DNA from: Akkermansia muciniphila | GTDB lineage: Bacteria > Verrucomicrobiota > Verrucomicrobiia > Limisphaerales > UBA9464 | Assembly (NCBI GenBank): GCA_945883815.1 | Contig: CAMCYJ010000008.1 | Coordinates: 1,285-65,284, forward strand | Direction: 5' to 3' | DNA: 64,000 nucleotides | Part shown: one piece after another, positions 17,476-29,308 of the stretch | How positions within the stretch are numbered: position 1 is the stretch's first letter | How the letters are laid out: each line of letters opens with the position of its first letter | Made by a program: the position numbers and the translations under genes | The notes under the pieces: model-generated | Database searches by the model: none | What the model saw: only the letters and a program-made list of their open reading frames with translations | Told to the model about the DNA's origin: nothing

Positions 17476-17832
17476 CTACTGAGTCACGTTGAGCACCTGG
17501 ATGCCCTCGGCGGCCGAGGGATCAATGGCGTTCAATGCATTGATCGCTGTGGTCGCGGTGCTGGTGTCCGGATCTTGCATGAGGGCCTTGAGGTCGGGAA
17601 CCGCTGCCTTGGCGGCAGGTCCGATTTGGCAGAGTGCGTAGGCGGCCAGTCGGCGGATCACCGTATCGTCCGACTTGAGCAGCGGGATGATGTCTTTCAC
17701 CGCGGAAGCGGACTTCGGGCCCCCAGCGGCGAGTTCACTCAGTGCATTGGCCTGAGCGTCGGTACCGCCCTTAAGTTGAGCCACCTGAGCAGTCACCTCG
17801 ACCGCCTTGGCGGCGTCCTCGGATGTTGCCAC
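17476..17832 (-). CDS. small HEAT-repeat protein
   Basis: 118 aa with PBS-lyase/HEAT-like repeats (IIPLLKSDDTVIRRLAAYALCQIGPAAKAAVPDLKALMQDPD). It lies directly upstream of, and on the same strand as, the giant RCC1 gene. Confidence 0.6.
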   Translation of the reverse strand: MATSEDAAKAVEVTAQVAQLKGGTDAQANALSELAAGGPKSASAVKDIIPLLKSDDTVIRRLAAYALCQIGPAAKAAVPDLKALMQDPDTSTATTAINALNAIDPSAAEGIQVLNVTQ

Positions 17833-18074
17833 CAGTGTCTCGTCTGGGTCTTCGGGGCAAAAAAGGGGTGCCGGAGTTGTGGACCGAACGCCGGATTAAC
17901 CTCGGATCAACGGGGTTTGCACCCGCAGCGCAGGCACAGGAATTTTTGAGGACTCCGGTGGAATGCCGGGTGTCAGCAGGTGCGTTTGCCAGTTCAGCAC
18001 CGGCAAACACAGTCCGAGGACCGTCTCCGATCGGGTTCTTGCGGTGGTCGTTTACCCGGATCGGCTTGTCGGAC

Positions 18075-19595
18075 TCAAAGCAGACGAGGCTGTCTCATGG
18101 AGGCATCCAACTCGGAGGTGAGGGCACCGGCCCGGGAACGACGACGTTCGATGATGTGCTTGTCCGTCGCCGGGTCGTAGTCGACCGGGTAATTGCCGTC
18201 GTAGCAGGCCAGGCAGAATGCGTTCTTGGGACGCCCCGTGGCTGCGACCATGCCGTCGAGGCTCAGGTAGCCGAGGGAATCCGCGTTCAGGAATCGGCGG
18301 ATTTCATCCTGCGTGTTGGTGGCCGCCATCAGCTTGCTGCGCTCCGGGAAGTCGATGCCGTACACACACGGATTGATGTGGGGCGGGCAGCTCACCAGCA
18401 CGTGCACCTCCTTGGCTCCGGCCTCCTTCAGCGAGGTGACCCGGGCCTTGCTGGTGGTGCCGCGCACGATGGAATCATCCACGATCACCACGCTCTTGCC
18501 GCGCACCAGATCGGCAATGAGGTTGAGTTTCACCCGGACGTTGAAGTCCCGGATGAACTGCGAGGGCTGCAGGAAGCTTCGGCCGACGTAGTGATTTCGC
18601 ACGAAGGCCATTTCGAAGGGGATGCCGCTTTCCAGCGAGTAGCCCAGCGCGGCGCAGTTGCCTGAATCGGGCACCGGCACGATGACATCGGCCTGAATCT
18701 TGTGTTCGCGAGCCAGCTGGCGACCCATTTCCACCCGCACCTTGTAGACGTTGCGGTTGGCGATGTTGGAGTCGGGGCGGGCGAAGTAGACGTACTCGAA
18801 AATGCAGAACGCCTCGCGCTTCGGGGTGGGGAACGCTTGGATGCTGCGGACCCCGTCGGAATTGATGATGACGATCTCGCCCGGTTCGATATCGCGGACG
18901 TACTTGGCCTGGATCAGATCGAATGCGCAGGTCTCGGAAGACAACACGAAGGCCCCGTTGTCCATGCGACCGAGGGCCAGCGGGCGGAACCCGTGGGGAT
19001 CGCGGGCCCCGATCAGCTCGTTCTCGGTGAGGATCACTAGCGAATAAGCGCCTTCGATGCGGCGCATGGTCTCGATCAAGGCGCTCTCGTGCCCGGCGCG
19101 GGCGGGTTGGGCCAAGAGATGCAGGATGATCTCGCTGTCCACCGTGGTCTGGAAGATGGATCCGCTGGCCTCGAGTTCTTCGCGCAGCTGGGCCGCGTTG
19201 GTGAGGTTGCCGTTGTGGCCGATGGCGATGCGTCCCTTGGCGCAGTCCACGGTCAGGGGTTGGGCATTGACGATGTTCGACGAACCGGTGGTCGAATAGC
19301 GCGTGTGCCCAATGCCGGTATGGCCTACCAGACGATGCAGAATGTCGCTGGTGAAGACCTGCGGCACCAGGCCCATGCCCCGGTGGATGTTGAAGGTCTT
19401 GCCGTCGGTGGTGACGATGCCCGCGCTCTCCTGTCCGCGATGCTGGAGGGCGTAGAGGCCGTAGTAGGTCAGTTCGGCGGCATTCGGATGCCCATGGATG
19501 CCAAAGACCCCGCAGTAATGCTTCGGATGGTGTTGCACGAGACGCCGGGAGAGTCCGGAAGCCGGCGTCGAAGGCAAAGGGCTTTTTTGCCCCAT
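18075..19595 (-). CDS. purF: amidophosphoribosyltransferase
   Basis: 506 aa. A propeptide precedes the catalytic CGVFGIHG. The PRPP motif VVIVDDSIVRGTTS and C-terminal Fe-S cysteines are present. Confidence 0.95.
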   Translation of the reverse strand: MGQKSPLPSTPASGLSRRLVQHHPKHYCGVFGIHGHPNAAELTYYGLYALQHRGQESAGIVTTDGKTFNIHRGMGLVPQVFTSDILHRLVGHTGIGHTRYSTTGSSNIVNAQPLTVDCAKGRIAIGHNGNLTNAAQLREELEASGSIFQTTVDSEIILHLLAQPARAGHESALIETMRRIEGAYSLVILTENELIGARDPHGFRPLALGRMDNGAFVLSSETCAFDLIQAKYVRDIEPGEIVIINSDGVRSIQAFPTPKREAFCIFEYVYFARPDSNIANRNVYKVRVEMGRQLAREHKIQADVIVPVPDSGNCAALGYSLESGIPFEMAFVRNHYVGRSFLQPSQFIRDFNVRVKLNLIADLVRGKSVVIVDDSIVRGTTSKARVTSLKEAGAKEVHVLVSCPPHINPCVYGIDFPERSKLMAATNTQDEIRRFLNADSLGYLSLDGMVAATGRPKNAFCLACYDGNYPVDYDPATDKHIIERRRSRAGALTSELDASMRQPRLL

Positions 19596-19622: not shown

Positions 19623-22148
19623 CTAGGGATCCGTGTCTTTCGCGCTGAGGAGTTCGATGGCCAGGCTGTAGCTCTCCCCGAGGGCGTTGGTGACGGCGAA
19701 GAGGGTGCGCGGATGACCGTTGGTGACCTGCAGCGGGCCGTTTGCGGCCAGCGCCTCGAGCTGCTTCAGCGCGAGCGCGGTGTCGAAGCCGCTGCCTTTG
19801 TTGTGGCGCCCTAGCGACCAGAAACAATGGCACCTGAATGAGATGGAATCTCGACCCGGGTCCGTATCCCAAGTGGCGTGGGCTCTTCCCTCCTCGCTGC
19901 CTCCGATCCGCAGACCGAGGGCGTGGCCCGGAGGAACGTTGGCTGTCCAATCAGCCGTGATGCTGCTTTCTCCCAGAGGACGCTGGCTTGCCAACCGAAC
20001 GGCCGCCACGGCCGGCTCGCGACCCTCGGGCAGCGTGCGTCGGAAGGTCAAGCCGCCGGCACACCAGGATCCGTCGGCGTTGGTCAGCCCGAATAGCGTC
20101 AAGGGTTGACCTTCCGGTAGCCGGAGGGTGCGACCTGCTAGCCGGAAACGTAATTCCTCGGTTAACGCTGGCCCGGAGCCCTCGAAGTTCTCTGGAAGAC
20201 TGAACAACATGCTAAGGATTTGGCTGCGCCTCTTGTCATTCAGGAAGTTCGACGGTTGCTCCTGTTTCGATTCCCGTTGTCCATCGGATCGCTTCGTCCA
20301 GACCTCCAGCGATTCCCCGGGTCGAAACGGTGTTTGGGACGTGCAGTAGGGATCAAGAGAGCTCGTGAGGTTGGTGACACCGTCGAAGATGATTTCCTTG
20401 AAGGCCGGCGGAACCGACCCTTCGACCCAGGAATTGGCTGGAAGGATCTGGAGTCCAGGTGTCGCCCTATCCAACCCAGGTCGTGATGCGACGGGTGGGC
20501 CCAGAACGGGGGGCGGTACTACCGGCGGCCACGTGCCCGGTACGACCGGGGTCTTGTCGAATTTGTTCGCGAGCCGGTGAACGAGGCTTTCGAGTCGTCC
20601 GCCACCAAGGCTTGCCACTGTGACCGAGATCAGCAGAACCACTGGTAGGGTAAAGTCTCTGATTTGCCGGCCTAATCTTATTGGGGAAGGCTTCGGGTTG
20701 CTGGCCTGCATGAGCAGGACGAAGGGAAATGCGGCCACTGCAAGGTGTGCGAGCGCCAGGCCCAGTCGAATCGATGGGTCCAGCCCGAATACCGGGCGGG
20801 TAGCCATCCAGGCGACCCCCGCCAGGAGCGGGAAGAACAATGCAGCCTGTCGGTTCAGCGCCCGACGACCACCAGTTTCCAGGGTGCTCAACCACTGATC
20901 GGCCTTGAGTTTGGCTAGAGAATAACGATCGGAACGAAGTCCATAGAATACGATTAAGAAAACGGCCCAACCTGTATAGTTTCCTTCACTCCAACCCATC
21001 AAGGCCCGCACCGCTTCGTTGAATCCGGCCAATGCGAGAATGCTAGCGACCATCCATTGGTAGGTCAGTGCCCAAGGCACCAGCGACCGGTGGAGTGCGG
21101 GGGTGTTTACCTGGATGGGCGGCGGTTGGATCGGGGCTGGCGTCGCCGGGGCGGTGAGCGCCTCGACGCGGGTGCGGAACTCGGTGGCGGTCGGGAAGCG
21201 GAGCTCGGGCGCCACGGCCAGCGCCCGTAAGACCACCTCGTCGAGTCGGACATCGATCTGGATCCGGCGGGAGGGATTCTTGAGGGAGTGGCCCGGCAGT
21301 TCCCCAGTGAGCAGTTCGTACAGCACCACTCCTAGCGAGTAGATGTCGGCGCGGTGGTCGACCGGGCCGCGGGCCCGTTGTTCCGGGGCCATGTACTGCG
21401 GCGTGCCCGCGGCCGAGGCCCCGAGGGTGTCCGGCCCGCCCGCGCCCGCAGGCGGCGCGTTTACGGGCACCGTGTTCGCTGCGGCCGTGCCGGGGCCTCC
21501 CGCCGTCGCAGACCCGAGCAGCTTGGCGATGCCAAAATCAGCCACCTTCACCCGGCCCTGCTGATCGAGCAGCAGGTTCTCCGGTTTGATGTCGCGGTGC
21601 ACCACGCCGTGATCGTGCGCGTACTGGAGTGCCTCGCAGACGGGCGGGACGATGGCCAGCGCCTGTTCCGGGGTGAACCGGCCGGCCGTCATCGCCTGGC
21701 GCAAGTTGACCCCGTCCACGTATTCCATCACCAGATGGTAGAATCCGCCCGACTCGCCGAAGTCGTGGATGGTGACGATGTTGGGGTGATTCAATGAGGC
21801 CAGCGTCCGGGCCTCGGCGGTGAACCGCTCGGCGAAGCCCGGGTGGGTGCTGCGTTCTGGGGCCAGGATCTTGAGCGCTACGAACCGGTTGAGAGCTTTC
21901 TGCCGGGCTTTGTACACCACGCCCATGCCGCCGCGGCCGAGGCACTCGAGGATTTCCAACTGGGGAAAGTGCGGGGCCAAGGCCGCCGGGCTGAGGGGTT
22001 CGGAAGGCGTTTGGGCTGCCCCACCCGGTTGCGTGGGAGCCATCGCCGCCGAGAAGAGGCATCGGGGGCAGGGATTTTGCGAGGCGGCCGGGTCAAGGGC
22101 CGAGCCGCATCGCGGACAGTGGCTGGCCGAGGGAGTCGAGAGGCTCAT
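19623..22148 (-). CDS. membrane Ser/Thr protein kinase with N-terminal zinc ribbon and uncharacterised extracytoplasmic C-terminal domain
   Basis: 841 aa. Contains CPRCGSAL..CPRCLF. Hanks kinase motifs are present (GRGGMGVVYKA, HRDIKPENLL, ADFGIA, GTPQYMAPE). Several TM segments are followed by an unassigned domain of about 330 aa. The start overlaps the sigma gene stop (ATGA). Confidence 0.88.
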   Translation of the reverse strand: MSLSTPSASHCPRCGSALDPAASQNPCPRCLFSAAMAPTQPGGAAQTPSEPLSPAALAPHFPQLEILECLGRGGMGVVYKARQKALNRFVALKILAPERSTHPGFAERFTAEARTLASLNHPNIVTIHDFGESGGFYHLVMEYVDGVNLRQAMTAGRFTPEQALAIVPPVCEALQYAHDHGVVHRDIKPENLLLDQQGRVKVADFGIAKLLGSATAGGPGTAAANTVPVNAPPAGAGGPDTLGASAAGTPQYMAPEQRARGPVDHRADIYSLGVVLYELLTGELPGHSLKNPSRRIQIDVRLDEVVLRALAVAPELRFPTATEFRTRVEALTAPATPAPIQPPPIQVNTPALHRSLVPWALTYQWMVASILALAGFNEAVRALMGWSEGNYTGWAVFLIVFYGLRSDRYSLAKLKADQWLSTLETGGRRALNRQAALFFPLLAGVAWMATRPVFGLDPSIRLGLALAHLAVAAFPFVLLMQASNPKPSPIRLGRQIRDFTLPVVLLISVTVASLGGGRLESLVHRLANKFDKTPVVPGTWPPVVPPPVLGPPVASRPGLDRATPGLQILPANSWVEGSVPPAFKEIIFDGVTNLTSSLDPYCTSQTPFRPGESLEVWTKRSDGQRESKQEQPSNFLNDKRRSQILSMLFSLPENFEGSGPALTEELRFRLAGRTLRLPEGQPLTLFGLTNADGSWCAGGLTFRRTLPEGREPAVAAVRLASQRPLGESSITADWTANVPPGHALGLRIGGSEEGRAHATWDTDPGRDSISFRCHCFWSLGRHNKGSGFDTALALKQLEALAANGPLQVTNGHPRTLFAVTNALGESYSLAIELLSAKDTDP

Positions 22149-22918
22149 GCATCGGTTTCCTGCCGTGGCACGGGCGAAGGGTTACCGGGATTCATCGACT
22201 TTCTTTCCAGGGCCGCAAAGAGCGCCTGGAGCTCCGATTCAATCCCCTCGGGATGTTCCAGAGTGGCGGCGATCTCGGCGCGCAGCCGGTCACGGAATCG
22301 CCGCCGGAGTCGGTGGATCGCCACCTTGAGGGCCGTTTCGTTCATCCCGTTGCGCCGGGCCAGGTCCTTCTGGTCGCCGTGGCCTGCATCCCCGGTGAGC
22401 CAGGGCTTGGCCTCTTCAAAGAATTCGCCGCGCCCCTCGTGGATGCATTCCTGCTGCAGGGACTCCATCGCCCGCCGAAGCACAGTCAGCGCCCATTGCC
22501 GGTCGTAGGCTTCGTCGGGCGAGAGTTGGCCCGGGTCGGGAAGCGCCAGCGGTGGCCGCCCATCCGGTGAGGCATCGGTCGATAGGTGTTCGATCGCCGC
22601 GCCCCGCTTGAGGCGTCCCTCGGCCTCCCGCTGTCGGGCTACGAAGTGCTTGAGGGCCCCGAGCAGGTAGGATCGGAACCGCCCCTGGTCTTCGCTGGCG
22701 TGGGCGATGGCGCCGCCAGCCAGCAGTCGGGCGAAGAATGCGTGGGAGAGTTCCAGTGCCGAGTCCGGGTCCGGCAGGGTGCGTCGCAAGAAGGCCGTGA
22801 CCGGTTCGTAGTACGCAGCGCACAGCTCCGAAAGTGCCCGTTGACCCTCGGGCGAATCAACTTTTGCCCGCCGGACCTGTGTCCAACGGGTCTCGCGGAA
22901 TTGGGGGCCGAGCATCAT
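22145..22918 (-). CDS. ECF-type RNA polymerase sigma factor (kinase-associated type)
   Basis: 257 aa with sigma-70 region 2-like and region 4-like segments (C-terminal LKVAIHRLRRRFRDRL). It shares a 4-nt overlap with the downstream kinase gene. Confidence 0.8.
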   Translation of the reverse strand: MMLGPQFRETRWTQVRRAKVDSPEGQRALSELCAAYYEPVTAFLRRTLPDPDSALELSHAFFARLLAGGAIAHASEDQGRFRSYLLGALKHFVARQREAEGRLKRGAAIEHLSTDASPDGRPPLALPDPGQLSPDEAYDRQWALTVLRRAMESLQQECIHEGRGEFFEEAKPWLTGDAGHGDQKDLARRNGMNETALKVAIHRLRRRFRDRLRAEIAATLEHPEGIESELQALFAALERKSMNPGNPSPVPRQETDA

Positions 22919-22932
22919 CCACCACCCTAGAC

Positions 22933-23406
22933 TCAGGCCAGGTGCTCTGCCAGTTGGCCGGTGGTATCCCGCAGGCGTTGACTGAGGAGCCGCGCGATTC
23001 GAAGCAGAAATTTGGCCGCCAGCTTGGGTTGGCTGTCGAGAAGCCGGTCGAAATCGCCACGCTGCAGGACGAACAACCGGACATTGGTGTCGGCTATCAC
23101 TGTGGCCGAACGCGGTTCCCGGTTGAGGACCGACATTTCGCCGAAGGCTTTGTCCTTACCAAGGCGACCGATCACCGACTGAGACCCGTCTGAGGCGGAT
23201 TTTTGGACGGTCACACTTCCCTCAATCAGTATCCCCATGAAGGAATCCGTGTCGCCTTCCTTGCACAGGACCGTTCCAGGACCACCGGAGCAGGCTTTCA
23301 TGTATTCGGCCAAGAGCATCAGGTCGGTTCGTGTGAAGCTCAGCGACCAGACCGACTGCTCCAGCAGGTCGGCTTGTTGCTGGTTGCTCAAAGCGTGTAC
23401 TTTCAT
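22933..23406 (-). CDS. stand-alone cyclic-nucleotide-binding domain protein
   Basis: The likely start is ATG 23406 (MKVHALS...). cNMP-binding signature FGEMSVLNREPRSATVIA is present. No HTH or other output domain is seen. The ORF extends to 23559 through AT-rich sequence. Confidence 0.8.
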   Translation of the reverse strand: MKVHALSNQQQADLLEQSVWSLSFTRTDLMLLAEYMKACSGGPGTVLCKEGDTDSFMGILIEGSVTVQKSASDGSQSVIGRLGKDKAFGEMSVLNREPRSATVIADTNVRLFVLQRGDFDRLLDSQPKLAAKFLLRIARLLSQRLRDTTGQLAEHLA

Positions 23407-23561
23407 GGTGGGCGTGGGTTGAATAAAAACTGTTTTTGATGATTGTTGAAGAGTCTGGATCAAACAATTCAGATTTATTGGGTAATTGAACGGCAGATTG
23501 CGTGGTTTTGACGGATCCGTAATGAAGGTGCCATGACGACAGGTTGTTATTGTCGACACTG

Positions 23562-26036
23562 ATGAATGCTGAAGTTGAGAATGCCGGCAGCGAAGGCAGG
23601 ATCGCCGCCTTCAGTCGACAGCATCAAACCGGCCTGGTGACCCTGATGTTCACCGATCTGGTGGGTTCCACCCAACTCAAGCAGCGCATGGGCGACTGGC
23701 TCGGAGTGCGGCGTATCCAAGAACACCACGCCATGGTCCGAGGATTGTTGGCCGAGTTTGCGGAGGCGGCCGAGATTAGCACCGCCGGCGATTCGTTCTT
23801 CCTGGTGTTCGCACGCCCATCCGACGCTGTGGTCTTCGCTCTCAGGCTTCAAAAGGAGCTCCGGGATTCAGCCCATGCCGACGAGACTCCGCTTCGGGAC
23901 CGCATCGGCATCCACCTCGGTGAGGTGGTGATCGAGAAGGGGCAGAGCCGGCGGGTCCACGACTTGTACGGAATCCAAGTCGACCTTTGTGCCCGCCTGA
24001 TGTCGCTGGCCGGGGCCGATCAGATCCTCACCAGCTCGCTGGTCTTTGAAAGCGCCCGCGATGCCTTGGCGCGTGGGTCTGACGATCTGGCCGCGGTGCG
24101 CTGGGAGCGGCATGGCCGCTATACCCTGAAGGGCATCAACCTGCCGGTCGATGTCCATGAGGTCGGTGAGGCGGGCGTCGTTCCGTTCTGGAAGCCGCCG
24201 GGAGCATTGGCCGAGGAGCGGGTTTCTCAGGCTCCGCTGGCGCCTCCTCCCGAGACGGCTCTCGCGACCCCGATTACCCGCCCGGTCAAACGAGTGCCTT
24301 GGACGGCCCTGGGCGTGGGGGTTAGCCTGCTGATCCTGGGAGGCCTGCTCGGCTGGCGGTGGATGTCGCCCCGGACGGAGCGTCTGGCCATCCTGCCGTT
24401 CCAATCCCCCGAGGCGGGCCCCCGGGCCGACGATTTCGGCATCGGTCTGGCCGAACGGGTCGAGGCCCGGCTCCAGGAGCAGGTCGCCGAATCCAAAACC
24501 CTGCGCTTCTCGCCGCTGCGCGACGCGGTGGACAACGGCGTGACCAACGCGGTGCTGGCGGGTTCCAAGTTGGCGGCCGACCTGGTTGTCGAGGGGAGCT
24601 TGTCTGGCGGGCTCAACCGTCGGCGCCTGGTGGTGAGCCTGCAGGCCCGCGCCCCGAACGGGGCCTTCATCGAACGACGCTCGGGCGAGTTCTCCCAGAA
24701 GTCGGAGGAGACCCTGGTCCAGTTCGAGGTGCGTCTGGCCCGGCAGTTGGCCGAATGGCTGGGGGCTTCCGGATCGAAGGGGGGTGGCTCCGGTGGTTCC
24801 CAAGTGCCGGCCGTTTCCGAGGAACCCTCGCCCCCGGTTGATCCACAGGTGGCTGAGTTGCACCTGGAGGGTCTGGGTGCCCTCCGGAACCGACATGTGA
24901 AGGGCAGTCTCGAGAAGGCGGTCCGGGACCTCCGGTTGGCCCACACCCAACGCCCGGAGGATCGCGATATTTGTGCCGATTATGCCGAGGCGCTGTTCTG
25001 GACCTTCGACCAGAATCAGGATCCCGAGGATCTTATCCTGGCCGAGACGGTCGCCGAGAGGAATGCCCTGCGGAAACCCGCGTCCGGGCGAGCCAGCGCT
25101 GTCCTGGGGATGATCCTGGTGTTGACCGACCGACCTTCTGAGGCAGTACCGCATCTCCGCAAAGCCTTGGAGCTGAGTCGATCCAACAGTCGGGCCCGGG
25201 TGGATCTGGCGTGGGCTCTGGGAAAGATGGGGCAGACTGAGGAAGCCTCCGCCGAGTTCGACCGGGCTACCGCCCTGGATCGTGGCGATTGGTACGCCTA
25301 CAATCTGAGGGGCTTGTTTTTGATGGGCGAGGGGCTTTTCGACTTGGCTGAGCAGGAATTCCAGAAAGTCGCTCGGATAGCACCCGGCAATTACCAAGGG
25401 ACTGCGAATGCCGGCACCCTGGCCCTGCTGCATCGTGGAGATAGACCTGCCGGGAGGAAACTCTTGGAAGAAGCCCTCGCTAACAACCCTTCGCTGGTGA
25501 TGGCCGGCGAGATCCGTATGAGGTTGGGATGGGCGTTGCTGGTGGATGAGCCGGACCGAGCCCTGAGGGAATTGGAAAGAGCAACCCGAGAGGCTCCCGG
25601 CAACATCGGGTGTGCCATGGTCCTTGGCGAAGCGCTGATGTCCCGAGGCGACTCAGAAGGCCATGCACGCGCACTAGTGGAGTACGAGCGCGCTCTCCGG
25701 TCGCTGGATCAGAGAATCCGGCGTCTCTCCAAGCACGCCATCAATTCTGCGAATGATCGCATGGATCGGTCCCTTTGCCTGGCCGCTTTGGGACGTTCCG
25801 CCGAGGCGATGACCGAATTGGGGCGTTTGCTCTCCGAATCTCAAAAGAACCCGGATGCATGGTTGGTCAGCGCGATCGTTGAGTCGATGGCGGGACAGAA
25901 AGACCGGGCGTTGGAGTCAATGCGAATGGCCCACCGACTCGGCATATCCGAGGAACGCATGAGCGAAGAGTGGCCGCTAAGACCGTTGCTCAAGGATTTC
26001 AAGGGCGATGAACGCTCGTTGAAGAAAAAAACATGA
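23562..26036 (+). CDS. class III adenylate/guanylate cyclase with TM segment, periplasmic region and TPR repeats
   Basis: The cyclase catalytic core is at the N-terminus (VTLMFTDLVGSTQL...GDSFFLVFA...RIGIHLGEVV). A TM helix lies near aa 255-275. The C-terminus has TPR-like repeats. An alternative TTG start is at 23544. Confidence 0.88.
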   Translation: MNAEVENAGSEGRIAAFSRQHQTGLVTLMFTDLVGSTQLKQRMGDWLGVRRIQEHHAMVRGLLAEFAEAAEISTAGDSFFLVFARPSDAVVFALRLQKELRDSAHADETPLRDRIGIHLGEVVIEKGQSRRVHDLYGIQVDLCARLMSLAGADQILTSSLVFESARDALARGSDDLAAVRWERHGRYTLKGINLPVDVHEVGEAGVVPFWKPPGALAEERVSQAPLAPPPETALATPITRPVKRVPWTALGVGVSLLILGGLLGWRWMSPRTERLAILPFQSPEAGPRADDFGIGLAERVEARLQEQVAESKTLRFSPLRDAVDNGVTNAVLAGSKLAADLVVEGSLSGGLNRRRLVVSLQARAPNGAFIERRSGEFSQKSEETLVQFEVRLARQLAEWLGASGSKGGGSGGSQVPAVSEEPSPPVDPQVAELHLEGLGALRNRHVKGSLEKAVRDLRLAHTQRPEDRDICADYAEALFWTFDQNQDPEDLILAETVAERNALRKPASGRASAVLGMILVLTDRPSEAVPHLRKALELSRSNSRARVDLAWALGKMGQTEEASAEFDRATALDRGDWYAYNLRGLFLMGEGLFDLAEQEFQKVARIAPGNYQGTANAGTLALLHRGDRPAGRKLLEEALANNPSLVMAGEIRMRLGWALLVDEPDRALRELERATREAPGNIGCAMVLGEALMSRGDSEGHARALVEYERALRSLDQRIRRLSKHAINSANDRMDRSLCLAALGRSAEAMTELGRLLSESQKNPDAWLVSAIVESMAGQKDRALESMRMAHRLGISEERMSEEWPLRPLLKDFKGDERSLKKKT

Positions 26037-26491
26037 AAACACCCAGCAAAACCAAGAAACCATCCGTCTCCAAGACCTCGGCCGTCGCCAAGGCCTCCAA
26101 GGCGGCACCCAAACTCAAGAAGGTCGATGCGTTGGCGGTGGCCGATGTCGTCATTGGCTTGGACACGTTCGGCCGCGTGACCTACTCCACCAATACCTTG
26201 GCGCCGGTCCTAGATGGTGAGTTAGCCGTCCGACCTGGGGCCGCGGTGACTTTTTCATGCCATATCGGAGCGTTGGCGGTTGGCCTCCTGCCCGTTAAGA
26301 CCGAGGGACCCAGAATCGAGTTCAGGGTGGGGAGTGCACCGACTGGAGGCCGAATTTCGTTTGAAGTTCCCAAGGAGGCGAAAACGAGTCTTTACAAATA
26401 TACGTTCACGATATTCTTCGATAACTCGAAGCCCAAGACGAATATCGGCAGCGCAATGACGGTAGACCCGAGATTTCGCGTTCTTCTCTGA
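26033..26491 (+). CDS. hypothetical protein, translationally coupled to the cyclase
   Basis: 152 aa. ATGA overlap with the cyclase stop. It has a Lys/Ser/Ala-rich N-terminus followed by a beta-rich region. I recognise no family. Confidence 0.55.
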   Translation: MKTPSKTKKPSVSKTSAVAKASKAAPKLKKVDALAVADVVIGLDTFGRVTYSTNTLAPVLDGELAVRPGAAVTFSCHIGALAVGLLPVKTEGPRIEFRVGSAPTGGRISFEVPKEAKTSLYKYTFTIFFDNSKPKTNIGSAMTVDPRFRVLL

Positions 26492-26650
26492 TCTTCCAGG
26501 ATTCAGACCTGCACCGCCGGGCCCGTGCCGGTCTCATGACCAATAAGTGTCCTGCGGTCGGCGCGGTTTTTGTTTTTTGTGCCGGCGTGCCCGAGGTCCT
26601 GCTGGCGGTCCGGCAGGGCTTCGGGCAATCTTTTCCACGATCACTCTCCT

Positions 26651-29308
26651 ATGAAGCCCTTCTATCGTCTTGCCCTGCTCCTGGCCCTGGCCGGACGGGG
26701 ACTCGCCGCCGAGACGGCGGTGCCCACCAGCCTGCTCCAACTGGCCGACCCCGACCTGGAAGTCACGGTCTGGGCATCGACTCCGATGCTCAAGAACCCA
26801 ACGAACCTCGACTTCGACCCTCAGGGCCGGATTTGGGTGGCTGAAGGGGTAAATTACCGCGGCCACTACAACCGCCAACCGGCCGGTGACCGCATCGTCA
26901 TCCTGGAGGATTCTGACGGGGACGGCGTCGCCGACAAGCAGAGCGTGTTCGTGCAGGAACCGGCGCTCCGGGCGCCCATGGGCGTGGCAGTCATCGGCAA
27001 CAAGGTGGTCGTTTCGATGGCTCCGGATGTGATCGTCTACACCGACGTCAACGGCGACCGGAAGTTTGATCCCGCGGTCGACAAGCGCGAGGTGATCCTC
27101 ACCGGATTCCACGGCAAGAGCCACGACCACACCATCCACAGCGTCACCGTGGGGCCTGATGGCCAGTGGTACTGGAACGCCGGCAATTGCGGGGCCATGT
27201 TCACTGACCGCTCGGGTAAGACCTTTCGCGTCGGCAGCGCTTATAACCCTGGCAACGCCGAACTGGGCTGGCATCCGACCCAGATCGCTGGCCAGAAGAG
27301 CGATGACGGTCATGTGTGGATCGGTGGGTTCGCCGCACGCATGAATCCCGATGGCTCGGGTGTGCACATCATCGGCCACAATTTCCGCAACAGTTATGAG
27401 CAGACGGTCACCTCTTATGGCGATGTCTTCCAGAACGACAACGATGATCCTCCGGCTTGCCGCACCGCCTTCTTGATGGAGTACGGCAATGCGGGGTTCT
27501 GCTCGCTCGATGGCCAACGCTCTTGGGGAGCCGACCGCCGACCGGGGCAAAGCACTCCGACCGCCGAGTGGCGTCAGGAAGACCCGGGTTCGATGCCCGC
27601 GGGTGATGTGTACGGGGGCGGTTCGCCGACGGGCATCGCCTTCTATGAAGACGGTGCGCTGGGCCAGAAATACCGCGGCTTGCTGCTGAGCTGCGAGCCG
27701 GGCCGCAACGTCGTCTTTGGCTACTTGCCCAAACCCGACGGAGCCAACTTCAAGCTCGAGCGCTTCAACTTCCTGACCAGTAATGCGGAGGGAAATTATT
27801 CCGGTACCGATTTCAAGGGCGGCAGCCGCGGTGAGCAGACCCTCAAGGTGATGTTCCGCCCGAGCGATGTGGCCGTTGGGCCGGACGGAGCCATTTACGT
27901 GACCGATTGGTTCGACGCCCGTGTGGGCGGTCATGCCGACTGGGATGAAACCACCTCGGGAACGATTTACCGCATCGCTCCGAAGGGGTTCCGCTCCAAG
28001 GTGCCGCAGGCCCAGTTCGACACGCTCGACGGGGCGCTCGCAGCCCTGAAGAGTCCGTCGGTCAACATTCGCGGCACGGCTCAGGAGGCTGTACTCAAGC
28101 ACGGCGACAAGGCCGTGAAACCACTGGCGCGTTTGCTCAAAGATGAGAACGCCTTCGTCCGGGCCCGGGCCGTTTGGTTGCTGGCCCGCGTGGGCAAGTC
28201 GGGCCCGAAGCCTGTGGAGTCCCTGCTGAAGGATTCGGATCCGCAAATGCGCATCGTGGCCTTCCGCGCTCTGCACCGGACTCGCAAAGCGTTGCCGGAA
28301 CAAACCGCATCGCTGGCCAAAGATCCGTCTCCGGCCGTCCGACGCGAGGTGGCGCTGGCCTTGCGCGATCTGCCATTGGAGCAGACCCGCGGGCACTTCC
28401 TCACCTTGGCCAAAGGTATTGATGGATCCGACCGCACCCTGCTCGAGGCTTGGGGCGCCGGAGCTGCGGGCCAGGAGTCGGCCTTGTACGACCAGGTCAA
28501 ACCCGTGCTCAACGATCCCAATCCGTTGCGCTGGTCGCCTGCTTTCGCCGCCATGGCTTGGCGCCTGCATCCGCCGCAATCCATCGGGGATTTCCGCACC
28601 CGCGCTTTGTCGACGAATCTGGACCTGGCCGCCCGCAAATCAGCCCTGACCGCCATCGGCTTCAACACCGTCCCGGCAGCCTCGACCGCCATGTTGGACG
28701 TCGCGGCCCAGGCCGAGGGCGTCATCAAGGCGGAGGCCATCTGGTGGCTCATGAATCGCAAAGACAATGTCTGGAAGGATCATGGCTTGGCCGCACCGCT
28801 CAAGGCTCGTGGCATTTACGATCCGGAGGCGGTGGAGTTGATCTCGGCCACCATTCCGCAGGCCGAGAAGCCGTCCTTCTCGGTGGCCGATGTGGCGGCT
28901 CTGAATGGTTCCGCCGCGCGCGGGCAAGAGCGTTTCAATGCGATCTGCGCCAGTTGTCACCGGGTGGGGAACAATGGTGTGGAATATGCCCCCAATCTCA
29001 CGGGTTGGGCCAAGCGCCAGACGGCCGAGGTGTTCTTCAACTCGGTCATCAATCCAAGTGCCGACATTGCCAGCGGATTCAACGGCACCGAGCTCAAGTT
29101 CAAGGATGGCACCGAGATCCATGGCGTGGTGATCAGCGAGGGAGATCCGGTGGTCATTCAGAGCGCGGCGGGCCTGGTCCAGTCGGTGCCCAAGAACCGG
29201 ATCGCCGAACGCAAGGGCTTGGGTCGATCCCTCATGATGAGCGCCGACCAATTGGGTCTGAAGGCTCAAGATTTGGCCGACCTCCATGCGTTCCTGAAGA
29301 ACCAGTAA
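26651..29308 (+). CDS. PVC-type heme-binding CxxCH protein (dehydrogenase-like beta-propeller + HEAT repeats + cytochrome c domain)
   Basis: The start is at ATG 26651 (MKPFYRLALLLALAGRGLAA signal). HEAT-like repeats are present (DENAFVRARAVWLLARVG, DPSPAVRREVALAL). The C-terminus carries FNAICASCHRV (CxxCH). Confidence 0.85.
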   Translation: MKPFYRLALLLALAGRGLAAETAVPTSLLQLADPDLEVTVWASTPMLKNPTNLDFDPQGRIWVAEGVNYRGHYNRQPAGDRIVILEDSDGDGVADKQSVFVQEPALRAPMGVAVIGNKVVVSMAPDVIVYTDVNGDRKFDPAVDKREVILTGFHGKSHDHTIHSVTVGPDGQWYWNAGNCGAMFTDRSGKTFRVGSAYNPGNAELGWHPTQIAGQKSDDGHVWIGGFAARMNPDGSGVHIIGHNFRNSYEQTVTSYGDVFQNDNDDPPACRTAFLMEYGNAGFCSLDGQRSWGADRRPGQSTPTAEWRQEDPGSMPAGDVYGGGSPTGIAFYEDGALGQKYRGLLLSCEPGRNVVFGYLPKPDGANFKLERFNFLTSNAEGNYSGTDFKGGSRGEQTLKVMFRPSDVAVGPDGAIYVTDWFDARVGGHADWDETTSGTIYRIAPKGFRSKVPQAQFDTLDGALAALKSPSVNIRGTAQEAVLKHGDKAVKPLARLLKDENAFVRARAVWLLARVGKSGPKPVESLLKDSDPQMRIVAFRALHRTRKALPEQTASLAKDPSPAVRREVALALRDLPLEQTRGHFLTLAKGIDGSDRTLLEAWGAGAAGQESALYDQVKPVLNDPNPLRWSPAFAAMAWRLHPPQSIGDFRTRALSTNLDLAARKSALTAIGFNTVPAASTAMLDVAAQAEGVIKAEAIWWLMNRKDNVWKDHGLAAPLKARGIYDPEAVELISATIPQAEKPSFSVADVAALNGSAARGQERFNAICASCHRVGNNGVEYAPNLTGWAKRQTAEVFFNSVINPSADIASGFNGTELKFKDGTEIHGVVISEGDPVVIQSAAGLVQSVPKNRIAERKGLGRSLMMSADQLGLKAQDLADLHAFLKNQ

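Follow-up and report, generated by a model that had tools for sequence, protein, structure and literature searches.

Separable sigma-kinase, cyclic-nucleotide-binding and cyclase-homology modules at a variable site in a verrucomicrobial genus

The 64,000-nucleotide stretch analysed here (the window; contig CAMCYJ010000008.1 of assembly GCA_945883815.1, labelled Akkermansia muciniphila) carries five genes between purF and a gene for a 912-aa DUF7133/HEAT/cytochrome c protein. They encode a membrane Ser/Thr kinase, a sigma factor resembling those of the extracytoplasmic function (ECF) type, a stand-alone cyclic nucleotide monophosphate (cNMP)-binding protein, a class III cyclase-homology protein with tetratricopeptide repeats (TPR) and a 152-aa protein, orf152 (Table 1). 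We read this locus, with a probability of about 0.6, as a variable site at which a separable sigma-kinase cassette, a resident cNMP receptor and a cyclase/orf152 unit have come together. The window genome (G000) is a metagenome-assembled genome (MAG) of 3.96 Mb in 189 contigs that is about 91% complete. An earlier note, made from the nucleotide letters and the open reading frames (ORFs), had described the five ORFs, their strands and their spacings exactly as we found them, and its domain calls (Pkinase, cNMP_binding, and a class III cyclase with a membrane span and TPR) were recovered by Pfam and NCBIfam; its further proposal, that the cNMP-binding protein gates the sigma factor or the kinase, is weighed below.

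Results and Discussion

Each module comes and goes independently of the others

When the site between purF and the 912-aa gene was compared within the window genus, all five genes were found in G000, G004, G001, G005, G020 and G011 and on the metagenome contigs L133 and L135, while the cNMP, sigma and kinase genes without cyclase or orf152 were found in G019, G014, G008, G022 and G002. The cNMP gene accompanied by cyclase and orf152, without sigma or kinase, was present in G021, the cNMP gene alone in G006 and G023, and the site was empty in G016. On more distant contigs (L130-L132) two cNMP genes in tandem are followed by purF, and the linkage of cNMP and purF is also kept in the genomes that have no sigma or kinase gene. 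In the cyclase-less genomes there is a decayed stub of 137-157 bp from the 5' end of the cyclase gene, 69-75% identical to the window and with a mutated start codon, and G021 retains kinase remnants at the site, indicating that both the cyclase-less and the sigma/kinase-less states arose by deletion. Frame changes were also found, in the kinase of G019 (L028) and G022 (L027) and in the cyclase of G021 (L034) and L134. The three modules are thus gained and lost independently of each other.

Synonymous divergence along the island is mosaic. Between G000 and G004 it amounts to 0.03 for orf152, 0.12 for sigma, 0.17 for the kinase, 0.26 for the cyclase and 0.56 for the cNMP gene, and between G000 and G006 the flanks diverge by 0.3-0.5 and the cNMP gene by 2.8, which argues that the modules were exchanged by recombination and not inherited as a block. 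A distant clade of the same genus holds six to seven sigma paralogs, each at most 43% identical to the window sigma, whereas relatives with 60-63% identity are found in other families, a distribution consistent with the cassette having been acquired horizontally or with the distant clade having lost the ortholog.

The arrangement was not found outside the genus. At least 583 relatives of the sigma factor were confirmed in a scan of species-representative genomes, and the best 80 of them were used for locus comparisons. Among these 80 loci a cNMP gene lies upstream of sigma in just the five from the window genus, all of one clade there, and in none of the approximately 75 sigma-kinase loci outside it; nor was a cyclase found within 6 kb of sigma at any of the outside loci. 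The five-gene neighbourhood singled out in the earlier note therefore extends to further genomes of one clade, is not conserved beyond that clade and is modular inside it. The locus provides a natural experiment, in which one freshwater genus has varied combinations of receptor, cyclase and sigma-kinase genes at one site, and the separability of the modules argues against inferring function from adjacency in one genome.

The sigma-kinase pair belongs to a large verrucomicrobial family

Almost all of the best 80 sigma relatives are labelled as Verrucomicrobiota MAGs or isolates, such as Chthoniobacter flavus and Brevifollis. A kinase ORF directly adjoins the sigma gene in about 75 of the 80 loci, mostly downstream and overlapping it, and when all ORFs of these loci were clustered all against all, just two families were present in more than eight loci, sigma in all 80 and the kinase in 77. 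This clustering detected no conserved anti-sigma factor or other third partner gene, and a hidden partner of either kind shared by the 80 loci was rejected accordingly. Three sigma paralogs are encoded in the window genome, each beside a Ser/Thr kinase. Linkage of sigma to a Ser/Thr kinase without an anti-sigma factor, first noted for the single operon of the window, is hence the rule for the family, and the two-gene cassette is of a known kind that forms a large family in Verrucomicrobiota.

Adjacent Hanks-type kinases replace anti-sigma factors in ECF43 and in several other ECF groups (PMC7826278, PMC8999054, PMC13147305), and direct phosphorylation of sigma by the adjacent kinase has been demonstrated for EcfP/PknT and EcfK/PknS (PMC8999054, PMC13147305). 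The window cassette resembles the ECF43 pairs EcfP/PknT of Vibrio parahaemolyticus and EcfK/PknS of Xanthomonas citri in having an ECF-type sigma that adjoins a membrane Ser/Thr kinase and in lacking an anti-sigma factor, and it further shares with them a variable extracytoplasmic sensor domain of the kinase and a kinase that is the presumed activator. Other kinase-linked groups, predicted from genomic data and mostly from Planctomycetes, are ECF59-62, ECF217, ECF267 and ECF283 (PMC7826278); they are similar to the window family in their origin within the Planctomycetes-Verrucomicrobia-Chlamydiae (PVC) superphylum and in their conserved sigma-kinase microsynteny, and some of them keep a DAED-like motif (PMC8999054). 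The window sigma family might correspond to one of them or be as yet unclassified.

A divergent ECF-like sigma factor

Curated sequence models do not identify the sigma protein: there was no Pfam match, neither Sigma70_r2 nor Sigma70_r4 being detected, the score against TIGR02937 was below threshold (22.5 bits, cut-off 42.9), and a search of the Protein Data Bank (PDB) with the single sequence found no sigma factor. A profile built from 63 family members matched Rhodobacter sphaeroides SigE (2q1z) weakly (E = 0.017). The AlphaFold2 model computed from the alignment of these 63 sequences (predicted local distance difference test, pLDDT, of 85) has two helical domains with about 27 residues of linker between them, and its best Foldseek matches are almost all ECF sigma factors, including AlgU (8z6g, probability 1.0), BldN, SigW and SigL. 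The sigma2 domain of the model could be superposed on region 2 of Escherichia coli sigmaE (4lup) with a TMt of 0.80 and a root-mean-square deviation of 2.5 Å, and the two-domain architecture of group IV, sigma2 plus sigma4, is recognisable in the model. Judged by its predicted fold, and not by curated sequence models, the protein is a divergent ECF-like sigma factor; the label "ECF sigma" initially given to it stands in this sense, although the protein is far more divergent than was then assumed.

Region 2.2 of the family reads xARELxH(A/D/E)FF, with the acidic residue in 98% of the 63 members. ECF43 has QTTA in this region (PMC13147305), whereas the corresponding positions of the window family read (A/S)-A-R-E, with no conserved Ser or Thr, and by this motif, in which the acidic residue is kept and the phospho-acceptor Thr is absent, membership in ECF43 was ruled out. 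The conserved Ser and Thr residues of the family lie elsewhere, in the N-terminal FxTTRWTxV and at S22, S83 and T219. The window family also differs from ECF43 in that no Pfam sigma model matches it and that its partner kinases carry an N-terminal zinc-ribbon-like motif. Taken together, the acidic region 2.2, the Thr-rich N-terminus and the zinc-ribbon-like motif suggest that this family of hundreds of members is activated at a site other than that of ECF43; to our knowledge, experimental study of kinase-activated ECF sigma factors has been confined to a few proteobacteria.

As a separate observation, the third position of F-x-T-T-R-W-T-x-V is Thr in 81% of the 63 relatives and Glu in the window genus (FRETRWTQV; nucleotides 22889-22900, sigma residues 7-10), so that in this genus an acidic residue naturally takes the place of a candidate phosphosite.

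The partner kinase and its duplicated ectodomain

The Pkinase domain (PF00069) of the kinase was detected at residues 65-293 (2.5e-50, 171.7 bits), and GRGGMGVVY, FVALK, HRDIKPEN, DFG and MAPE, as expected of a Hanks-type kinase, are all present in the translation. Ahead of this domain, 75 of the 80 sigma-partner kinases (ORFs in L044-L123) carry CxxC-N(10-13)-CxxC followed by LMAEAMxPTQ. This zinc-ribbon-like motif may serve to dock sigma and so take the place of an anti-sigma domain.

Alleles of the kinase are either long (about 800-845 aa) or short (666-703 aa), and the short ones are common. The short alleles have lost residues ~362-480 in frame, and with them about four membrane spans; the predicted topology is such that the ectodomain would lie outside the cell in both. 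That the short alleles are pseudogenes was considered and rejected for G011 (L025), whose in-frame deletion recurs in many alleles.

Each of the two 17-residue motifs from which an internal duplication of the ectodomain had been proposed (residues 679 and 810 of the kinase) forms the end of a module of about 130 aa, and the two modules are homologous. When compared by hhalign with an 80-sequence profile, the two modules align over 127 columns with 99.4% probability and an E-value of 7.5e-22; with orthologs alone the match is weak (31 columns, E = 1.3e-3), and self-BLAST of the ectodomain found no repeat. The duplication is thus real and much stronger than the two motifs had indicated. A search of 1.84 billion representative proteins with the C-terminal 297 residues of the kinase returned 79 relatives; of nine that were inspected, eight are Ser/Thr kinases whose N-terminal part is laid out alike, and other Ser/Thr kinases carry one to four tandem copies of the two-module unit (about 255 aa). 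An AlphaFold2 model of the ectodomain reached a pLDDT of 60, and its Foldseek matches (antibody Fab chains, TM of about 0.2) were meaningless and were discarded.

The last ~55 codons of the kinase gene (19626-19790), encoding FDTAxALKQLEALAA...SAKDTDP, are nearly invariant among orthologs, in which the rest of the ectodomain is 60-85% identical. This may be due to constraint on the segment or to a boundary of recombination in common with the purF flank.

The cNMP-binding protein is a resident gene without an output domain

The cNMP_binding domain (PF00027; 1.5e-21, 76.6 bits, cut-off 27.5) fills nearly all of the 157 residues of the cNMP-binding protein, and its phosphate-binding cassette, FGEMSVLNREPRSAT (FGE...RSA), is intact and conserved in 13 of 13 orthologs. 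Most orthologs start 18 nt further upstream (MQPTPxIKV, 162-163 aa), at a position where the window genome has ATT and uses the ATG at 23406 instead. As had been noted, the protein has no output domain: it ends about 30 residues past the cyclic nucleotide-binding (CNB) barrel. A CRP/FNR transcription factor was rejected as an identity for it, given that there is no C-terminal helix-turn-helix and that the CRP model PRK11753 gives 35 bits, far below its cut-off of 266, and covers profile positions 33-137 only. The FGE...RSA cassette is that of cAMP-CRP signalling, as in the Cya/Clr system of Sinorhizobium (PMC10127613); in contrast to Clr, the window receptor has neither a DNA-binding nor any other output domain.

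Orthologs with at least 64% identity are restricted to the window genus, where they occur in 13 of 23 species genomes, and the next matches reach at most 39% identity and lie in unrelated gene contexts. The ratio of nonsynonymous to synonymous substitution rates (dN/dS) of the cNMP gene, relative to G000, is 0.10-0.17 in every state of the locus, including those without sigma/kinase or cyclase, and no relaxation was seen. The gene is intact and constrained regardless of these neighbours and therefore serves a purpose independent of them; presumably its product is a cyclic-nucleotide receptor whose target is another protein.

The window genome encodes just two class III cyclase domains, two cNMP-binding domains and three sigma-kinase cassettes. 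Both of its cNMP-binding proteins are small and output-less, and no regulator of the CRP type was found in this genome. The second cNMP-binding protein (contig C76 of G000, 17659-18153; L128, 6660-7154) is a frame of about 165 aa with 26% identity to the first, and its gene stands at a contig end and adjoins a radical-SAM/BATS gene. In a more distant relative (L130, 7001-8021) the tandem cNMP duplicates are 66% identical and lie directly upstream of purF, with no sigma, kinase or cyclase gene near them.

The cassette has probably come under the cNMP promoter

In 31 of about 67 sigma relatives outside the window genus, a strongly conserved ECF-type element GTAACC(T/A)TTC...CCAA.ACGTCAGG (GTAACC-N-CGTCAGG) is found directly upstream of sigma. 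No copy of GTAACC-N-CGTCAGG was found in the window, in the loci of the genus or in the whole window genome, the best score obtained with the position weight matrix being 13 of a possible 46.5. The spacer between the cNMP and sigma genes has a constant length of 14 nt in 10 genomes of the genus, and no terminator-like site was found between the two genes on the minus strand. With the family promoter missing, the spacer constant and no terminator between them, the cassette is most likely expressed from the cNMP promoter, and cNMP, sigma and kinase are probably transcribed together. The idea that the cNMP gene is the first gene of the sigma operon is accordingly probable for this genus.

In the loci L049-L074 and others, the promoter-like element upstream of sigma is followed about 10 nt on by TGGCATGAT, which suggests near-leaderless sigma transcripts.

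The cyclase-homology protein and orf152

The cyclase-homology protein matches Guanylate_cyc (PF00211; 8.7e-17, 61.7 bits, cut-off 21.9) and TPR families. Its layout is that of a receptor-type cyclase, with a catalytic domain at residues ~21-215, one membrane span at ~245-268, a TolB-like stretch and TPR repeats. Among solved structures, Ma1120 of Mycobacterium avium (PDB 4wp3; 1.2e-18) comes closest, and the protein is similar to it and to receptor adenylate cyclases in its class III domain, in both metal-binding Asp residues (FTD and GDS in the alignment with Ma1120) and in its single-span receptor layout. It also has the specificity Asp and the catalytic Arg. Compared with canonical enzymes, Ser takes the place of the purine-binding Lys and VD that of VN, the Asp lying four residues ahead of the Arg; all orthologs share the two replacements, as does the entire kinase-fused subfamily described below. 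Ma1120 has no Asn at the VN position either, and it has been described as an active cyclase. If the window protein is an active cyclase, cAMP is its assumed product.

The nearest relatives of the cyclase domain, at 45-57% identity, are encoded at 29 loci of the same order (L137-L165) and share EISTAGDSF and G.QVD.CAR with it. In at least 20 of these 29 loci the domain is the N-terminal part of cyclase-Ser/Thr-kinase(-WD40) fusions of 700-1900 aa. In the locus L168 a gene for a 242-aa cNMP-binding protein lies directly upstream of a cyclase-kinase fusion gene.

The 152-aa ORF that had been noted as coupled to the cyclase overlaps it by ATGA and is restricted to the genus: orf152 has no family match, and among 5.8 billion proteins it formed 6 clusters, all from the window genus. 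Wherever sequence of the region is available, it accompanies the cyclase, in G020 as a divergent form of 156 aa, and, to judge from its dN/dS of 0.27-0.33, it is a real gene.

Proposed working of the locus and alternatives

If the pair works like EcfP/PknT and EcfK/PknS, the kinase of the window would sense an extracytoplasmic cue and phosphorylate sigma, which would then engage RNA polymerase. The sensor would be the periplasmic domain with its two duplicated modules of about 130 aa, and no anti-sigma factor would take part. The cNMP-binding protein would be a resident of the region upstream of purF, with its own function as a receptor for another protein, and the cyclase-homology/TPR protein with orf152 would be a third unit, probably supplying the nucleotide to the neighbouring receptor. 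In this clade the cassette is without the self-activating promoter of its family and, standing 14 nt behind the cNMP gene, is probably transcribed together with it. As the genome holds two cyclases and two cNMP-binding proteins, the adjacency of a cyclase and a cNMP gene is unlikely to be due to chance, so that calling these two a divergent cAMP module, as was done before, is reasonable.

Several points weigh against this reading. With two cyclases, two cNMP proteins and three cassettes per genome, finding all three kinds within 7 kb would be unlikely under random placement. A receptor with no output domain, in a genome with no CRP-type regulator, must act through a partner, and the neighbouring sigma and kinase are the obvious candidates. 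The cyclase-kinase fusions make some general cross-talk between cyclases and kinases in the order plausible, and a sigma that keeps the acidic residue in region 2.2 and has no Thr of the ECF43 type may be activated by a mechanism that differs from that of EcfP. Finally, two steps of the scheme, co-transcription and phosphorylation, rest on inference, as do the production and binding of the nucleotide.

One alternative is the proposal that the cNMP-binding protein is a nucleotide-gated partner of sigma or of the kinase. The output of the cyclase would then control sigma, for instance by sequestering or releasing it in a cAMP-dependent way or by modulating the kinase. It is the alternative that survives best, and we consider it unlikely. 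In its favour are the 14-nt gap between cNMP and sigma wherever both are present, the loss of sigma's own promoter, the two cyclases and two cNMP-binding proteins in a genome with no CRP-type output domain, and a cyclase subfamily that is mostly fused to Ser/Thr kinases, one fusion even having a cNMP-binding gene directly upstream. The comparative data speak differently: no cNMP gene precedes any of the approximately 75 sigma-kinase loci outside the genus or lies near the other two cassettes of the window genome, the cNMP gene is intact and has the same dN/dS where sigma and kinase are absent (G021, G006, G023 and L130), sigma and kinase were retained after deletion of the cyclase, and the synonymous divergence between G000 and G004 (0.56 for cNMP, 0.12 for sigma) shows that these genes were not inherited as one unit. 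Gating thus fails the conservation test and receives no support from the comparison of genomes, and most of what the earlier note had named as refuting it was observed. A more specific form, in which a horizontally acquired, promoterless sigma-kinase cassette was placed under a cAMP module whose cNMP protein gates sigma or the cytoplasmic zinc-ribbon/kinase region of the kinase, is doubtful. If true, a second messenger would feed into an ECF sigma factor that is activated by phosphorylation, a new route of sigma-factor control; we know of no description of such an input so far.

It is still less probable that the cyclase-homology protein signals directly to the Ser/Thr kinase, as might occur in the fusions of related genera, with the cNMP protein as a bystander. 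At least 20 of the 29 related loci do have the same cyclase subfamily N-terminal to a Ser/Thr kinase, but these fused kinases are distant from the sigma-linked one (E-values of 1e-12 to 1e-30, versus about 1e-100 for the partner kinases), and five genomes have kept the kinase after deletion of the cyclase, the reverse being the case in G021. That the island is decaying accessory DNA whose genes no longer form a working pathway in the window genome is very improbable: empty and partial states of the site and the frame changes in the kinase (G019, G022) and cyclase (G021, L134) would fit decay, but all five frames are intact in G000, dN/dS lies well below 1 for every gene (0.13-0.46), and neither the kinase's catalytic motifs nor the nucleotide-binding cassette is impaired.

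Layout of the locus and the divergent spacer

The coordinates of the genes and of the features within them are given in Table 1.

Table 1. Features of the variable site and its flanks (positions in the window; aa, amino acids)
Feature	Position	Strand	Remarks
purF	18075-19595	-	Conserved flank on the right side; 27 nt downstream of the kinase gene, same strand
Ser/Thr kinase gene	19623-22148	-	841 aa; ATGA overlap with sigma gene
Ectodomain module 2 (kinase residues ~710-841)	19626-20021	-	Ends in NGHPRTLFAVTNALGESY; hhalign
Ectodomain module 1 (kinase residues ~579-708)	20025-20414	-	Ends in EGQPLTLFGLTNADGSW; hhalign
Hydrophobic region (kinase residues ~366-525)	20574-21053	-	About 5 predicted membrane spans; hydropathy scan of the translation
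Zinc-ribbon-like motif (kinase residues 12-31)	22056-22115	-	CxxC-N13-CxxC, then LFSAAMAPTQ
Sigma gene	22145-22918	-	257 aa; ATGA overlap with kinase gene
Spacer from cNMP stop codon to sigma start codon	22919-22932	-	14 nt
cNMP-binding gene	22933-23406	-	157 aa
AT-rich divergent spacer	23407-23561		155 bp; 43% GC versus ~62% around it
Palindrome AAAAAC-T-GTTTTT	23425-23437		
Class III cyclase-homology gene	23562-26036	+	824 aa; ATGA overlap with orf152
orf152	26033-26491	+	Orphan; predicted to be translationally coupled to the cyclase
DUF7133/HEAT/cytochrome c gene	26570-29308	+	912 aa; conserved left-hand flank of the variable site

The palindrome to which attention had been drawn in the divergent spacer is present; as a regulatory signal it did not hold up and is an unconserved chance match. 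Inverted repeats with arms of at least 6 bp arose in 10-16% of shuffles of the spacer (P = 0.10-0.16), and AAAAAC-T-GTTTTT was not found in any orthologous spacer, that of the closest relative included, which rules it out as an operator. The spacer as a whole is poorly conserved among orthologous loci, and both transcription units presumably have their promoters in it.

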